This document shows positions 36,902 to 53,317 of a stretch of DNA of 64,000 nucleotides, one piece after another. The position numbers and the translations under genes are program-made. The notes below the pieces were generated by a model. It had not been told where the DNA came from, made no database searches, and saw nothing but the letters and a program-made list of their open reading frames with translations. This DNA is from a virus: positions 1-64,000 of the IMG/VR virus record IMGVR_UViG_3300034073_002585; one strand, 5' to 3'. How positions within the stretch are numbered: position 1 is the first letter of the stretch; the number at the start of each line of letters is the position of its first letter.

Positions 36902-37081
36902 ATGAGTGACGAACTAGAAGAAGGCTACAAGCATCTTGCTAATGACCCTAAATTTGTTAGACCTAATAGAGGTAAGCACCACTGCGGATTTGACTTTGAA
37001 CTTGACAAAATGACTGCAGTATGTAAGTGTGGAGCTATAGCAACAAATCCGTTGTGGATAATCAAAGGAGAGCAGAAGTGA
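36902..37081 (+). CDS. Cassette mini-gene 1 (59 aa, ends IIKGEQK)
   Basis: MSDELEEGYKHLANDP...CKCG...WIIKGEQK; not in the ORF track. Confidence 0.7.
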   Translation: MSDELEEGYKHLANDPKFVRPNRGKHHCGFDFELDKMTAVCKCGAIATNPLWIIKGEQK

Positions 37082-37251
37082 GCAGAGAGGAACACCTAAC
37101 TGAAATGATTCGCCTTGAACAAGAGATTGTTCAGGAAAACGAGAGTCACGAATGGGCTGGCTTTGACTCAGGTTGGACAGACTGCACTTGTGGCGCAACT
37201 GTTGCCGACTTAGAGAAACACATTGAACAAATCAAAGGAGAGCAGAAGTGA
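37078..37251 (+). CDS. Cassette mini-gene 2 (57 aa, ends QIKGEQK)
   Basis: GTG start inside the repeat, AAGGAG SD. Confidence 0.7.
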   Translation: MSREEHLTEMIRLEQEIVQENESHEWAGFDSGWTDCTCGATVADLEKHIEQIKGEQK

Positions 37252-37391
37252 AACTTCACTATCACAAGCAACGCTGGCTGAAGTCCCAACGCAAAAAGCA
37301 AATCCTTAGCCTGTTCATTCCAATTGGTGGCGGCATTGGTCTAGTGGTATTAGGGCACGAAATCGCACTAATCAAAGGAGAGCAGAAGTGA
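37248..37391 (+). CDS. Cassette mini-gene 3 (47 aa, hydrophobic segment, ends IALIKGEQK)
   Basis: MKLHYHKQRWLKSQRKKQILSLFIPIGGGIGLVVLGHEIALIKGEQK; not in the ORF track. Confidence 0.7.
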   Translation: MKLHYHKQRWLKSQRKKQILSLFIPIGGGIGLVVLGHEIALIKGEQK

Positions 37392-37588
37392 CTGGCTCAG
37401 GAGCGAGGGCAAGGCAAAAGGCTAAGCGTGAAGCATGGCTAAAAAACATGCCATACCCTGGATTCACCTGCAAGGTTTGCAAACATGAGGACATGATGCA
37501 CTTTATGTGGGCAGGTTATTGCATTTTAGAAAACTGTGATTGCAAGAGTATGGATGGCATCGCACTAATCAAAGGAGAGCAGAAGTGA
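37388..37588 (+). CDS. Cassette mini-gene 4 (66 aa, Zn-finger-like, ends IALIKGEQK)
   Basis: CKVCKH...H...C...CDC. Confidence 0.7.
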   Translation: MTGSGARARQKAKREAWLKNMPYPGFTCKVCKHEDMMHFMWAGYCILENCDCKSMDGIALIKGEQK

Positions 37589-37734
37589 ATCCAGAAGACA
37601 TTGCAAAAATGATTGACGCAGTTGCTGCATATGGCGAACTGCTTGGCGGTATGAAAAAGAAGTTTATTGCAGAGGGATTCTCTGAGGAGACGGCAGAAGC
37701 TTTGGTTGTAGAGATTCTAAGGAAGATGAGCTAA
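37585..37734 (+). CDS. Small protein starting from the last junction repeat
   Basis: MNPEDIAKMID...GFSEETAEALV. Confidence 0.7.
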   Translation: MNPEDIAKMIDAVAAYGELLGGMKKKFIAEGFSEETAEALVVEILRKMS

Positions 37735-46304: not shown

Positions 46305-49300
46305 TATGGTCTCCTTGCTGCAGCTGCTGCTGCGCTGGTAGCGGCCGCAGTTGCAGTCATAGCAACCTGACCGACGATGACGGCAGCGATAACAACCTTC
46401 TCTGATTGCTCGCGTACCTCTGGTGACATGTCAGCGCCAGCGTTTCCAATGACGTTGAACGCTTCTACTGCTGCTCCAGCTACATCTCCTAAAAGTGGAA
46501 CTGCAGCTAAGGCTTCATCTAGAACGACGTCGTCCGCTTGAGCTGCAACTAGAAGTGCATCCAGAGCTGCTTCATATTCTGGGGAACCCTGCTCGGCACC
46601 AGAGTCAAATACTGCTAGAGCTGCCTCTTGGATAGCTTCTACCTGAGCTTCAGATAGCTGAGTTGGTTCAATCTTTACAAGTTCTTCAACTGCTGCTACA
46701 ATATTCTCAGGTGTGAGCTCTTCTTCTAACTCCACTGTTTCAGGTTCGACGGGAGATGGTGATGGAGTTTCGGACGGTTCTGGGGTTGAACTTGGCGCTG
46801 GCGTGGTCTCTGTGGGTGTTGGTGTCGGCGTCACTGATGGCGTGGGGGTTGGTTTCGGAGTTTCGGTCACTGTGGGAGTCGGAGTCGGAGTCGGACTTGG
46901 CTGAGCTGTCTCTGATGGAGAAGGAGAAGGCTCGGGAGTCGGCGTTAATGTTGGCTCGGGTTCGACAGATGGCTCAGGAGTTGGAGTTAGAGAAGGCGAC
47001 GACTCAGGAGTTGTCACAGGTTCGGGGGAAGGTGTACTGGAAGGGGTAGGTGATGGTTCTACTGTTGGCTCTGGTTGTGGGGTCTGTGTGGGGGTTGGCT
47101 CTGGCGTTACTACTGGGGCTGGAGCAGCGATAACAATATCTACAGTTGTAGAGTTGTCAGAGTAAACTGCTTGTGAGTCGTTGTCAGAACGAACACCAAA
47201 GGTATAAGTAGTATCTAATCCACCAGTTGCTTCAAAGGTTGAAGCTGGAATCGTAACTGATGTAGTAGTTGAAGCTACTGCCCAAGTGTTAGTTCCATCT
47301 GAGAAGAAGATTGCATAACGCTCTACTTGAACTGTATCTGTCTGTGGGGCATCCCACGTAACAGTCACAGAAGAGTCTTCATTCTGAACTGCTTGAATGT
47401 TTGTTGGAGGGTTCAGTGATGGGAAGATGTTATTAGTGAAAACAAAATCAGTTACGTTAGAAGTCTCGTCAACTGAGTAGCTCTGGTTGGTAGTTCCATC
47501 CCACTTGTAGTAGCGAACAACCATACCATTGTTTAGGAATGTGTTGTTGGTAAACGTTGACCACCCAGGGAACTTGTGACCATCGTTGTAACCGTCATCG
47601 TTGTAGATGGCAGTTCCATTGTTTTTGAAGGTGTTGCCAGAGAGTAGACGGTTGTCAGTTCCCATGTTAAACGTGGTTGGCATCCATACGTTGTTGTAAT
47701 ATGCAATTCCGTTTCCGATGAACTCGGTGTTGTAAATCTGAGTTCTGTTTAGTCCAGTGATTACTGCACCCCATGAGTTGTTCTCGAAGCGAGAGTTGTC
47801 GATGTAGGTGAACCTGTAGCTGTTAATAGCGTATGAGTTGTCAGTAAAGACTGAGTCATAGATGTAGGTTCTGTTCTGGAACAGAGAGTCTGGCTGTCCA
47901 TCCCAAGTAGTTACACCTGTAGGAAGCTGAGGGGTTGAACCCCAGTCGGCGGTAATACCTTGTCCATTGTGGTCGAAGGTTGCGCGAGTATAAGTTGCAA
48001 CACCAGAGTTACCAATGAAGACTGCAGAGCCACCATTCTGTCCAGTGAAGCGCATATCAGTTGATGTGAAGTTTCCACGGTTCTGATAAACCATTCCACC
48101 GCTTGATTGCTTACCATCTGAAAGAGTCAGGTCGGAAGCAGTCAATGTGATGTTCTGGTTGATGTTAAAGATTTGATAGGTGTCAGCACCAGAGATAGTT
48201 AGTACATCTTTACCTGGTCCGTCAATTGTCAGGTTCTGCGAAATGTTTGGCAGGTTGGAAGTTAGCGTGATGGTTCCAGAAACTGAAAAAGTAATCAGGT
48301 CGTAGATGCCGCCAGAGTTTGCGTTAGCCTGAGTAATCGCCCAGCGGAGTGTGCCTTGGTCTGCTGTGTCATCTAATGATGTAACTTGCAAAGATGTTGG
48401 CGGCGGAACAATTAGCTCCAGTTCTTGCTGAACTGCTAGGTCGTCAATGTATGCATCGTTGTAAGCAGTAGACAGATTAGTAGACGCAGTGTCATATGCT
48501 ACCTGCCAACCATCTACGGTGTCCTGCAAAGCTTGAGTGGTTGCTGGGTCAGACTCGTAGTCATAAGTTGCCTGCGCTGAATCCACAAGAGAAGACGCTG
48601 CTACTTCAGCTGAAAGGGCTGCATCGTAATCAGGAGCTAATAGGTCTAGGGCTGCTTGTGCGTCGAGGTAGTTTTGGTAGGCAGTTGGGTCATAAGAAGA
48701 TGTAACGAAAGTGAATCCATCTATAAGCCAGATGTCACCAAGGTTGCTGGTAACAGTGATGTACTGGATGGACTTGCCTTGAGGGGCAGTGTAAACGATA
48801 AAGCACTCGTAGTTCGGGCAGTTAGCATTTCCAACACCATTAGGGTTTACGAAAGTTGCAGTGGTGTTGTCAGTGAAGGTAACGGATATGTTCTCGTCAC
48901 CATTCTTTGCTGCTTGGTAAAAAGATAGCTGTGAAGCAGGTGAAGGCGGCTTAATCTGCAAAGGCTGTGATGTACCACCTATATAGATGACTCCACCAGT
49001 TACGTTTGGTGAGTAGTCATAGTTCTGAATTCTAGGGTCAGTGGCGTTGCTAATAGGGGTGGAGCCGTTTATGAGGAACTGAATGTTCGTGGTGATTGCA
49101 GGTCCAGTGAAAGTTTCAGTAATTGTTCCACCAGTTGCTGATGCCTGATAAGCATCGTAAGCATCGTTGCGGTCTTGTAGAGCTTGCTGGTAGTCAGGGG
49201 TCAGAGCAGACAAAGTGGCAGACGCTGAATCTAAAACTGCTTGGGCTACTTGTAAAGAAGTAGACGCTGCTTCAATAACTGAAGGCTGAGCTGCTAGTGC

Positions 49301-49621
49301 TTCGTTAGAAGTTGAAAGGTTGGTCTCTGCTTGGTTAAAAGTTTGGATGGCAGAAGAGTAAGAAGCAACTGAGTTAGCGAAACCGTTAACCGTTAGGGTT
49401 AGGGCATCTAGCTCCGAGATGGAGTTAGGTGCGTAAGTGTTGTAGTGAGCAGTGTAGTCAGCTAGGGTTTGGGTATAGCTGGCTAGGTTAGCTTGGTAGG
49501 TAGCTAAGGACTGGTTGTGGTCTACTGCTGAGGCTGGCAACATCCATGCAAACATTGGGCCAACTAGGGCCAAGTTTAATGAGATGAATGAGTGCCAGAA
49601 GACCTTATTTCTTAGGCGCAT
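46304..49621 (-). CDS. Large exported/virion protein: coiled coil, beta-helix, FN3, Pro/Thr-rich stalk, C-terminal anchor
   Basis: Signal-like N-terminus; GTLRWAI beta-helix cap; FN3 ([17 protein letters not shown]); ~125-aa PTP/PEP tract; hydrophobic C-terminus. Confidence 0.8.
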
Positions 49622-49898
49622 CTTCTCCTGCTTCTTTGAGTCGAACTACCTGAGAGAAAATCATGTTGACTTCTTCTTGGTCTATCTTTCCGTCCTCTAA
49701 GAAAGCGAGAGCTAGTTTCTCTACAACCTTTGCAACTGCTAGCAAACCACCAAGGGCAGCAGAGAGCCAGACGTCAATACCAATAATTGAGCCTGCTCCG
49801 ATAACGCCAAGGGCGCTGGCAATGAATGTTGCGATTACGCGATATGAAATATCTAAAGTTAACTTAAACTTACTGGTCTTACGTTTTTTCGTAGCCAC
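49605..49898 (-). CDS. Small membrane protein, possibly holin-like (paralog of 11937)
   Basis: Two TM segments, [10 protein letters not shown]. Confidence 0.6.
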
Positions 49899-49982
49899 TT
49901 GAGACTCCTAGATGAGGTGTCTCTCCCTTAAATATTTTACCAGATTAGTTGCATAGGGATAGGAAATGATATATACTGTAAG

Positions 49983-50076
49983 TGGTTCATATGTTGCTTG
50001 TTCATTGTGTGAGCCTCCTTTCTACTAAGTGAAAGCGGTCCAGGTTTTCTTGGTTGTTCTCCTGGGCCGCTTTTTT
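49983..50076 (+). ncRNA. Candidate sRNA carrying an anti-Shine-Dalgarno sequence
   Basis: TATACT -10 at 49972-49977; 5' hairpin; CCTCCTTTCT at 50014-50023; terminator 50032-50076. Confidence 0.55.
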
Positions 50077-50216
50077 ACTTTTGAAAAGAACTGCTATAGT
50101 TCGGAGAAAGTTTAATTATTTAAATAGTTTTTGTAGTTGACACTAAAAATAAAAAGTGTATACTCTGTAGCAAAGAAACTGCTTGACACCAAGCGGATAA
50201 ATGATAGGATGTAGTT

Positions 50217-50411
50217 ATGGACGCTATTACAATTACACTAAGTTGGAGCTGGTTCTCGTTCGCTATGGGAATCCTTGCAACTTTTGTTTTGATATTCTTC
50301 TTTGCTTTCCTGCAGTACCGTAAGCAACAGAAGGCAAAAGCTAAGTCCGACTGGGACAACATTGACAAGATGTTTCAACAGTGGGGTGGCAGAGACAACT
50401 CTAAATCCTAG
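50217..50411 (+). CDS. Small membrane protein
   Basis: One TM segment; TTGACA/TAGGAT leaderless promoter. Confidence 0.7.
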   Translation: MDAITITLSWSWFSFAMGILATFVLIFFFAFLQYRKQQKAKAKSDWDNIDKMFQQWGGRDNSKS

Positions 50412-50437
50412 GAGTTGCCAATTGGTATAGTTGACCT

Positions 50438-51040
50438 ATGGAAGAAAAAACCTTAGGTAGCTATGCTTACGGAGAAATCCGCCAACAGGTTCTTAAAGCT
50501 AGAGAACTAAAAAGCGCTGTCCTTTTTAAAAAGCTATTCACTGAAGTTCCAAACTGGGACGCCTTTATTAATCATTTAAACGTTCAGCTAAATAGAACTG
50601 AAGCTGCAAGTATCCCTAATGCTCCGCTGAAGGAGCATGTGCTTAACGGTGTAGTTAAACGTAACGATAGCTTCTTCTACTTTTACACGCATAAAGGCTG
50701 GTACTTCGAAGACTTTCCTGAGGTGGGAAAGATAATGGACGCCTTTAATGAAATCCTTTCAGAAGACTATGGCAGACAAGTATGTAATCCAGCTGGAGCA
50801 TTCATGAATTTTGCTGCTGAAGACTTTAAGGTTCCTTCGCATGGGGACGACAGGGAAACCTTGTTCTGGCAGTGCATTGGAACTACAACTTGGAACTTTA
50901 GGGAGCCAGATTCATTTGGAGCGGGAGAGCCATTCCTATCTGTGACTATGGAACCTGGGGATTGTGTTTATGTGGGCCACTGGGTTGAGCATGAAGTAAT
51001 CTTTAATGGTCCTAGGGCTGGCATCGCTTTTAACGTTTAG
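50438..51040 (+). CDS. JmjC/cupin oxygenase (third paralog)
   Basis: HGDDRETLFWQCIG...MEPGDCVYV...H. Confidence 0.85.
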   Translation: MEEKTLGSYAYGEIRQQVLKARELKSAVLFKKLFTEVPNWDAFINHLNVQLNRTEAASIPNAPLKEHVLNGVVKRNDSFFYFYTHKGWYFEDFPEVGKIMDAFNEILSEDYGRQVCNPAGAFMNFAAEDFKVPSHGDDRETLFWQCIGTTTWNFREPDSFGAGEPFLSVTMEPGDCVYVGHWVEHEVIFNGPRAGIAFNV

Positions 51041-51058
51041 AGCTACAATAGATATAAG

Positions 51059-51256
51059 ATGGAAACATTTCTTGGTTATCTGTATGTATTTGGTGCCATA
51101 CTTTTTGTGGTAGTTGTAAGCGGAATTCTCTACGCTTATCGAGGGGTCCGTAAAGAAATAGAAAACGCCCTTAAGAATGCAGATACAAAAGAGCAGGAAA
51201 TAATTCGTAGGAAAGTAGTGAAGGCTATGTTTCCTCCTAGATTCTTCCGAGACTAG
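51059..51256 (+). CDS. Small membrane protein
   Basis: N-terminal TM segment. Confidence 0.6.
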   Translation: METFLGYLYVFGAILFVVVVSGILYAYRGVRKEIENALKNADTKEQEIIRRKVVKAMFPPRFFRD

Positions 51257-51517
51257 TTAGTCTTCGTAGTCCTCGTCATCTTCGGCATAGGCCTTAATAC
51301 TTTTTTCTTCTTCCCCCCAGACGTAATAACGAACCGTCTGGTAGAGGTCGATTGTTTCTGATACAAGCTTCTCTGTTGCGAGGATAAGGTCTGCCTTGGC
51401 TTCTGGATTTAGTGGACGCTCCAATTCCATGTGAATTTCCTGAACGGCATAGGTGCAAAGTTCTAGACGCCTGAGAGTGGTCTCTAGGTTGCTAGTAGGA
51501 ATTCGTTCACCTGGCAT
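51257..51517 (-). CDS. Hypothetical protein
   Basis: TAAAAT -10 6 nt upstream. Confidence 0.6.
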   Translation of the reverse strand: MPGERIPTSNLETTLRRLELCTYAVQEIHMELERPLNPEAKADLILATEKLVSETIDLYQTVRYYVWGEEEKSIKAYAEDDEDYED

Positions 51518-51950
51518 GAGTCTATTTTACAGACAAATATTATCTATAAGAACTATGCTAAGATTCGAGCCTTGTTGGTGATTTTTATGTTGTGTTGGTG
51601 GGAAAGAAATAAGGGGTAAAAAGTTTTTAAAAAAGTTTTTCTTGATAATAAGGTAAGGAGTTATTATCAGATAAAACTAACGGAAAAGAAATATTTCTTG
51701 ATAATGACATTAGTTTATAATACATAATACATAATATTGAATAAGTTTTTGTGATACGCGTATAGAGTTGCCCTCTAGGCCTTACGTAAAAAATAATCGC
51801 TTATTATGTATTGTGTATAATGTATAATGTATTATGTAGAAGACCAATCCAGACTATTTGGAGTATGGAAGGAGAGGAGAAAATCGATAAAAATATATTC
51901 CTGTTTCTAGGGTTGAAATAATGGAACTTATGTTTTATGATTAATGTCTT
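51518..51950. other. AT-rich non-coding region with direct and inverted repeats (origin or terminus candidate)
   Basis: TTTCTTGATAAT x2; TACATAA heptamers at 51716-51736 inverted at 51802-51838. Confidence 0.45.
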
Positions 51951-53317
51951 ATGAGTATCTATGATGATGTTTCTACCTGGTACAAACAGCACTTATTGGA
52001 GACCCAAGGTGGTGAAGTATCAGGCAAATGGTCTGCTGAACTATTTATAGCAAAGACAAGTGTCCTTGCGTTTATAGACGTTCAACTTGCTGGAGATATT
52101 AAAAATATCTATACAGCAGATTCACACTTGAAGCAGAGATATAACAAACTTCAAGAAGTTGTCTTTCGTCTTGAGCAAGAAGCACAAGATTGTTGGCACA
52201 AACAAGGTTTACCAAGTTTGGAAGAGGTAAACCCTGAAGCTGAGAGAAAGTACAGAGAATTGGATTTCATAAAAAGTGAAAGAAGTAAATTTACTGAAGC
52301 CGTGATGGGCTGGTATCAGAATTCCGATGGTGATTTATTTCACTATGACGGAGTCATTTGGGACAAAATCCCAAAAGAAGCAATTCAAGAGCTAGAGTTC
52401 TTGGGATAGGAAAGGCAATAGATGATTAAAGCAAATGCAGGAAAGCTACGTGGAGTTCGCATTATGCGTGACCCAGCTGGAGTTCTGATTGACCCATTTA
52501 TCGATGACACTGGTATCCAGTATGGATATGTGATTGTTTATGGTGAAGAGCAGCCAGCGGTTTTTGATGGAACCGAGTGGCGTTCAATTATGGATGAAGA
52601 GGATTCGACTTGGGAAGACACCCTTGGCGACAGACTTCACACTCAGGCTCAGAAGATTATGGAGCTATCCACTACTGACCCAGTGTACGCTGAGCTAGCA
52701 AAGATTATGAATATCACTGTTAGTGTTGGTGCACCTGTTGCAGAAACAGTTATTGATTACGGAGCTAAGTCCTAATAATGTCGATTATCGATTCCTTTGA
52801 TTTCTCTGAAGAAGAGATTCAAATAGTTAACGAAGCGGTAAGTGAGCCGCCTCGTAGGAACGATAAGCGTATCTGTATCTGTGGGCATCCAATGTCTAGA
52901 CATGCTCTAGACTCTGGTAAGTGTAGACCTGCTCGCTTTGACTGTGACTGCGTAAGAAAACATCCAGTGTTAGAAGTACCAAACACTAAGTATTTCTTGA
53001 GCAGAAGTGTAGGTTCAGGCGAAAAGCATGCACTATCTCGTGGAATTGTCATGGCCCAGAATGGGATGGGTGATAATTTCAACGAAAGAGCTAAGTGGTT
53101 AGTTGACATGGTTTGTGAAAACCCAGAGTGCAAAAAGCCAACAAAGCTCTACCCCGTTCGGGTAAACCGACACGCTTACCGAATTTACGACCACGACAAG
53201 GATGAAGGCGTTACAATGTTCTTCTGCGAATCGTGTCGTGAAGTCTACTGGGACAGCGATGAAGCTAGGGAAAAAACAACCAAGCTTATTCGTAGCGTCT
53301 CACCACCAAGTAACTAG
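51951..53317 (+). other. Three hypothetical genes (51951-52409, 52422-52775, 52778-53317; the last is Cys-rich)
   Basis: Contiguous ORFs; CICGH...C..C motifs in the third. Confidence 0.7.

Follow-up and report, generated by a model that had tools for sequence, protein, structure and literature searches.

A candidate small RNA that exposes a copy of the 16S rRNA tail in an uncultured lake phage and its relatives

To our knowledge, little is known about phage-encoded regulatory RNAs outside the enterobacterial phages. In the literature that we searched, no regulatory RNA of actinobacterial phages is described, and Rfam has no family that matches the one reported here. The c4 RNA is cut out of the message that it regulates, and two of its loop sequences act on one defined target (ant). 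In phages P1 and P7, this antisense RNA binds around the ribosome-binding site and blocks the translation of a phage gene (PMC12197685). The candidate small RNA (sRNA) described here resembles c4 in being small, structured, and phage-encoded, but it differs from c4 in having its own promoter and terminator, and a seed that lies in a linker and is identical to the 16S rRNA tail; our target search, moreover, found no single conserved target. In Firmicutes, exposed C-rich motifs of the RsaE/RoxS RNAs pair with the G-rich Shine–Dalgarno (SD) regions of several targets. Those RNAs are cellular, belong to other sequence families, and use short CCC motifs, in contrast to the 9–10-nt copy of the 16S tail in our candidate.

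Two further systems are close in one respect each. The 6C/B11 sRNA of Actinobacteria uses exposed C-rich single strands to bind several mRNAs and does so without a chaperone (PMC6486639). Our candidate is likewise an actinobacterial-type sRNA with an exposed C-rich single strand; however, 6C is cellular and presents C-rich hairpin loops, whereas the candidate is carried by a phage, with a single CU-rich seed in a linker and a different fold. The RegB endoribonuclease of phage T4 cuts within GGAG and so inactivates early T4 messages (PMC1702504). It is a functional analogue only, a phage device directed against the SD of one class of the phage's own mRNAs: RegB is a protein nuclease, whereas the sRNA would mask the site by pairing. 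Both 6C and C4 are included in Rfam 15. A cmscan search of positions 48000–52000 against that release, with E-values of up to 10, assigned no family to the region, neither c4 nor 6C, and returned only three chance-level matches (17–19 bits, compared with gathering scores of 45–86).

The window, by which we mean the whole stretch of DNA analysed, corresponds to the initial 64 kb of a virus record of 154,192 bp (G000; G+C content of 45 per cent). Its source is an uncultured lake phage, probably with a host among the Actinobacteria. A blastn search of GenBank phages found no DNA-level match for the region, and the 97-aa membrane protein encoded to the left of the sRNA (Table 1) has a single, distant match there, in the metagenome-assembled phage DSL-LC01, for which, and for which alone, an Actinomycetia host has been predicted (PMC10611076). 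This 97-aa protein is itself extremely conserved: over 60 residues do not vary among eight sequences. It matches phrog_26427 (a PHROG annotated 'nuclease') and, weakly, a holin PHROG. In the leader of its gene (the 5' UTR, 49899–49930), a GGGAGAG..CUC hairpin is kept in all relatives.

Table 1. Positions of the candidate sRNA gene, its parts, and its neighbours in the window.
Feature	Position	Strand	Description and basis
Minus-strand operon left of the spacer	49898..49605 (97-aa protein)	-	97-aa membrane protein, 1105-aa protein, SNase-type nuclease
Divergent intergenic spacer	49899-50216		
Extended -10 of the divergent 97-aa operon	49934..49942	-	TGGTAAAAT; consensus match; back to back with the sRNA promoter
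22-aa ORF	49937..50005	-	AGAAAGGAGG-N8-ATG; mirrors the anti-SD and CAU of the sRNA; judged non-coding
sRNA promoter (predicted)	49949..49977	+	TTGCAT 49949-49954, 17-nt spacer, TATACT 49972-49977; read from the sequence
sRNA gene (candidate), ~93 nt	49984-50076	+	5' hairpin, single-stranded UCCUUUCU, terminator
5' hairpin	49984..50015	+	GGUUCAUAUG/UGUGUGAGCC, 10-bp stem with 4 G-U pairs; MFE fold; starts at or adjoining the predicted +1
16S-tail copy	50014..50023	+	CCTCCTTTCT / CCUCCUUUCU; like the last 10 nt of the Actinomycetota 16S tail
Exposed invariant seed	50016-50023	+	UCCUUUCU; alignment of members
Intrinsic terminator	50031..50076	+	14-bp stem 50031-50044/50061-50074; T-run 50071-50076 (six T)
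Two strong sigma-70-type promoters of downstream genes	50137..50210	+	TTGACA-16-TATACT and TTGACA-16-TAGGAT; consensus scan
Plus-strand genes right of the spacer	from 50217 onward	+	

The candidate sRNA gene lies between two divergent transcription units. An initial annotation of this DNA had described a TATACT -10 element, a 5' hairpin, and a terminator in the spacer, and all three lie where it placed them. In the promoter, a TG at 49967–49968 precedes an overlapping TATATA, and a layout of TTGCnn-~17-TGnTAynAT that matches the consensus is found at an equal distance in all 12 members of the family described below. Our consensus promoter scan did not return this promoter because its weak -35 element matches at only three of six positions. 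In the minimum free energy fold, the first two C of CCTCCTTTCT close the 5' hairpin and UCCUUUCUACUAAGU is unpaired. The terminator consists of a GC-rich stem followed by a U-run on the transcribed strand, and its stem includes the pairs U50039-G50066 and G50031-U50074; the consensus scan missed the full stem because the scan's loop limit is 8 nt. A 97-nt stretch folds at -36.3 kcal/mol, compared with -18.8 ± 2.7 kcal/mol for 200 dinucleotide shuffles, none of which equals it (z = -6.49), and for the reverse complement of the 93-nt RNA the value is only -18.5 kcal/mol. The sense strand holds a single ORF of 20 codons, which begins upstream of the predicted +1.

With the 97-aa protein as an anchor, we fetched 12 IMG/VR loci and 57 metagenome loci. 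Eleven of these (L008, L010, L011, L018, L019, L020, L027, L031, L035, L040, and L041) carry a homologue of the sRNA element in the equal slot and orientation; the window and these 11 metagenomic phage loci are the 12 members referred to throughout. In about half of the assessable loci, the spacer is at most 150 nt long and leaves no room for the element, although the intergenic lengths behind this estimate are rough, spurious ORFs having shortened some of them. Because about half of the loci lack the room and a few hold other modules, we regard the element as an accessory cassette. One such module is a hairpin–terminator without the anti-SD motif, which occupies the same slot at L004:2700–2990 (minus strand) and also in L022, L029, and L048. 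The slot between the divergent promoters looks like a place where small RNA cassettes are swapped.

When IMG/VR was scanned with a relaxed pattern, L122 and L125 emerged as two more possible members, both in other contexts. The one at L122:740–839 (minus strand), which scores 45.8 bits but was preselected by the pattern, belongs to a 67-kb phage contig that is otherwise different. It immediately follows the stop codon of the ORF that closes an endolysin–holin cassette, and an extended -10 lies within the end of that ORF. L015, a candidate from the first viral pattern scan, was rejected as a high-GC coding false positive. In a pattern scan of 185,579 cellular genomes, we accepted none of 17 matches as a member, the best covariance-model score among them being 34 bits for a pattern-preselected Firmicute MAG.

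The terminator is the most strongly covarying part of the element. In a model-based alignment of the 12 members, 97.8 per cent of the cells of its 15 pairs are paired and eight pairs are changed on both sides, values that none of 500 shuffles reach, while controls with a slid register give 38–60 per cent pairing. G-U or U-G pairs occupy 22 of the 180 stem cells (summed from the pair types in the alignment), and the position of the wobble shifts between neighbouring pairs from member to member. On the other strand, these 22 wobbles would be A-C mismatches, and the plus strand is therefore the functional one. In all 11 members that were folded both ways (the window and 10 others), the sense strand folds better, by 6–18 kcal/mol. 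The remark of the initial annotation that the G-U pairs of the terminator fit the plus strand only holds across the family. The 5' hairpin starts at the predicted +1 in every member, with sequences that vary by subgroup: the window, L010/L011, L019, L031, and L041 have one such hairpin and the L008 group has two. The hairpin shared by the window and L010/L011 is kept through one-sided changes (U-G in the window becomes U-A, and G-C becomes G-U).

Could the element be a bare terminator, or an insulator between divergent units, with the promoter-like and CU-rich sequences being incidental? The terminator is indeed the best conserved part, and in the possible distant member L122 the module directly follows a protein gene. 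However, the window has no upstream plus-strand gene that would need termination here, and eight invariant nucleotides beside variable flanks, a hairpin at +1, and a promoter at a fixed position would all be unexpected in a bare terminator. We therefore consider this explanation very unlikely. It is instead well supported, from the sequence comparisons, that the element specifies a structured plus-strand RNA, independently transcribed as predicted from its promoter, and that this RNA has been selected for its exposed copy of the 16S tail.

A role in cis would be a different matter, with regulated read-through of the terminator controlling the plus-strand genes downstream, as in a leader or attenuator. 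The element has the same orientation as those genes, and CUUUC of the seed can alternatively pair, as judged by eye, with GAAAG at the base of the terminator; such pairing would fit the unpaired probabilities, which are lower in L010, L011, and L040. Yet the GC-rich core of the terminator stays intact under this alternative pairing, and the downstream genes, which have strong promoters of their own (Table 1; one -10, TAGGAT, is 6 nt upstream of the ATG at 50217), are independent of read-through past the sRNA terminator. A separate promoter directly follows the terminator in all 11 members with sequence beyond it. Moreover, the downstream gene varies among members, being a 64-aa membrane protein gene in the window and another gene in L010/L011, and both of these genes fill the slot directly in relatives that lack the sRNA. 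With the core intact under the alternative pairing and the downstream genes self-promoted, we rejected a riboswitch or attenuator and consider control in cis highly improbable.

The initial annotation had offered, as its alternative, a type-I-like pair in which the plus-strand RNA is the antisense antitoxin of a minus-strand peptide (22 aa in the window) encoded behind an SD. The ORF and its SD exist as described: a perfect SD lies 8 nt before the minus-strand ATG, and an ATG is found 4–12 nt past the SD in 11 of the 12 members. The equivalent ORFs, however, are 22 codons long in the window and 5, 5, 6, 16, 17, 2, 2, 2, 2, 2, and 0 codons long in the 11 relatives, and they have no sequence in common. 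In addition, the stop codon of the 22-aa ORF is inside the -10 of the minus-strand operon, so the ORF lies upstream of the predicted transcription start, and only a weak 9-of-12 promoter match precedes it. That -10 is a recurrent feature, as an element like it is found ~35–50 nt before the start of the 97-aa gene in 11 of the 12 members and in the inspected loci without the sRNA. The wobble pairs, too, speak for selection on the plus strand. Because the ORF is not conserved and lies upstream of the minus-operon promoter, we rejected the type-I reading, which we find barely credible: there is no conserved small toxin ORF opposite the sRNA. The annotation had itself made the choice depend on whether conservation follows the peptide or the RNA structure, and it follows the structure.

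Outside the terminator, no stretch other than UCCUUUCU is unchanged across all 12 members, and its flanks vary. CUCCUUUCU is present in 11 of the 12, and the full CCUCCUUUCU in the window only. Opening the 8-nt seed costs 0.36 kcal/mol in the window and 0.05–2.2 kcal/mol across the family. The seed is the end of the 16S tail GGAUCACCUCCUUUCU. The 16-mer GGATCACCTCCTTTCT, which we take to be the 3' end of 16S rRNA, occurs in 80 of 121 sampled genomes from the phylum of a Solirubrobacteraceae MAG (Actinomycetota), compared with 0 for the reversed control; without the four genomes flagged as unpublished (G125, G006, G053, and G023), the count is 76 of 117. Identity with the Actinomycetota 16S tail, which would be that of the probable host, extends over 10 nt in the window, 9 nt in 10 members, and 8 nt in L019. 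The claim of a 16S-like stretch between the two hairpins is thus borne out, with 10 nt in common with the tail found in those 80 genomes. The 10-mer is present in the window in two copies (0.26 expected), the second at 126–135 on the minus strand, inside a purine-rich tandem repeat.

An exposed piece of the 16S tail might also act on a protein. In that case, UCCUUUCU would be a decoy occupying a protein that recognises the tail, for example a host endoribonuclease toxin that cuts the anti-SD, a maturation factor, or an initiation factor. One such toxin, MazF-mt3, is reported to cut at UCCUU, which is present in every member, and a decoy would account for 8–10 nt of identity with the 16S tail held single-stranded between two hairpins. 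Against this, the likeness to 16S stops short of the upstream GGAUCA, the first C of CCUCC is missing from 11 of the 12 members, and the complementary class of SD sites in the phage offers a simpler reading. We judge a protein decoy to be quite unlikely and rank it, like the bare terminator and the cis leader, lower than the blocking of SD sites by pairing.

We give an even chance to the proposal that the locus encodes a stand-alone ~93-nt sRNA that acts in trans by pairing with AGAAAGGRG SD sites and keeping 30S subunits off them. Underlying this proposal are selection at the RNA level, the strand on which it acts, an invariant exposed seed, a modular distribution, and a matching class of SD sites, all of which the analysis revealed. 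A host-type promoter of its own, back to back with that of the minus-strand operon, would drive transcription of the sRNA, which would stop at its own intrinsic terminator. The 5' hairpin and the terminator hairpin would then frame a single-stranded UCCUUUCU(ACUAAGU). As the seed has the same sequence as the 16S tail, it is complementary to long AGAAAGGRG SD sites. We infer pairing with such sites in vivo, the identity of the targets, and a repressive direction of the effect, as we do transcription itself. The best-matched partners in the phage would be strong-SD genes that head promoter–SD–gene cassettes at 59–74 kb (e.g. 65041, 67673, and 68705), and host messages with the same SD would be equally possible targets. 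Blocking of SD sites by pairing appears to be the simplest mechanism, with precedents in a phage (c4) and in Actinobacteria (6C).

The gene starts of the phage fall into classes that fit this proposal. Heuristic gene calling on G000 gave 198 genes covering 91 per cent of the genome. An SD that pairs with CCUCCUUUCU at -8 kcal/mol or below precedes 52 of the 198 starts (3.6 per cent in a random control), and one at -10 kcal/mol or below precedes 14 (0.6 per cent in the control), 10 of which are located at 59–74 kb. AAGGAG as such shows no enrichment across the genome (68 copies, against 73 expected). At the strong-SD genes, the sequence is A(A/C)AGAAAGGGG, and these genes directly follow promoters. 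Sixteen exact copies of the 16-mer TGTATTTATTTTTTGT at 59.3–72.6 kb of G000 mark the promoters of the cassette genes with the strongest SDs; the sRNA promoter does not have this 16-mer, and a variant with four mismatches lies ahead of the TTGACA promoter at 50137. A second class of 41 starts has a TAnnnT box 5–9 nt upstream (7.8 per cent at random positions). Since 40 of these 41 lack an SD, they look leaderless, and they include the starts at 50217 and 50438 beside the sRNA (box and start codon within 50204–50219 and 50425–50440). The two gene sets on which the initial annotation had built, one with AGAAAGGGG-type SDs and one leaderless-looking, are thus both present.

The search for particular targets gave different results in different genomes. 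A genome-wide duplex scan of G000 with the linker region of the sRNA placed the start region of 65041 as the third-best site outside the sRNA's own gene, at -28.0 kcal/mol (mean of -10.4, SD of 3.5). An equally good best site is obtained in 11 per cent of flank shuffles (P-value = 0.11), and the extra pairing in G000 is therefore not significant. In G001, pairing beyond the 9-nt seed is likewise not above chance (P-value = 0.78). In G002, a complete relative of 152 kb to which L011 belongs, strong-SD start regions make up the three best sites outside the sRNA's own gene (-31.3 to -31.6 kcal/mol). The fraction of flank-shuffled sRNAs that do as well is 0.01 when judged by the best site and 0.00 when judged by the mean of the top three. 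Across the sRNA variants, the target search found no single conserved target, each variant preferring another gene. As a partner, the 5' UTR of the neighbouring 97-aa operon does not stand out (-10 to -18 kcal/mol). Relatives without the sRNA, which are few and represented by incomplete records, have one to four AGAAAGGRG sites each. The 9-bp pairing of the seed contributes only about -12.5 kcal/mol, and, being identical to the 16S tail, the seed faces competition from many ribosomes; both points count against the pairing reading.

A broader effect would be global reprogramming, in which an abundant free copy of the 16S tail masks SD sites in general, in host messages as well as in the phage's own strong-SD genes, and ribosomes shift to the leaderless messages of the phage. 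The seed consists of the 16S tail itself and not of a sequence particular to one gene, the search for a conserved specific target was negative, and the gene statistics, with the leaderless-looking starts beside the sRNA among them, are compatible with such a shift from SD-led to leaderless translation. Nevertheless, amounts comparable to those of ribosomes would be needed, the phage's own strong-SD genes would be struck as well, and the sRNA is absent from about half of the close relatives. We consider this global reading unlikely. If it were true, the cell would be switched from SD-dependent to leaderless translation, with the leaderless genes of the phage continuing to be expressed. If, on the other hand, the sRNA acts on a few phage genes only, it would be an ordinary but new regulator of the antisense type. 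In either case, a small family clearly under RNA-level selection, with a seed that is the ribosome's own docking sequence and genomes that mix strong-SD and leaderless genes, raises the question of whether a phage can tune or redirect translation initiation by RNA instead of protein.

Several minor features of these genomes touch on the seed and its complements. In 11 of the 12 members, the seed is preceded, 4–12 nt on its 5' side, by a CAU (50003–50008 in the window) that in many cases is part of UUCAU and mirrors the ATG that follows the minus-strand SD. This CAU may be an anti-start-codon element, with the sRNA covering both the SD and the AUG of a target; we found no target that fits. Purine-rich tandem arrays of 12-nt units (GGGAAGTAAGGT and similar) occupy positions 1–170 of the window and 153,990–154,192 of G000, and arrays of the same type occur in G002 at 34.9 kb and 49.1 kb (L075 and L076) and in G003 at 54.6 kb (L086). 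IMG/VR classes the G000 record as having direct terminal repeats; because the arrays form both ends of the record, this 'direct terminal repeat' may reflect an assembly that broke off within repeated sequence. Within the arrays are exact copies of AGAAAGGAG(G), up to six in one G002 array, which, if transcribed in that sense, would be perfect partners for the sRNA seed or the 16S tail; alternatively, these copies may be located within a gene. Finally, at 37064–37600 of the window, four small genes have in common an identical AATCAAAGGAGAGCAGAAGTG junction, consisting of an SD and a GTG start.
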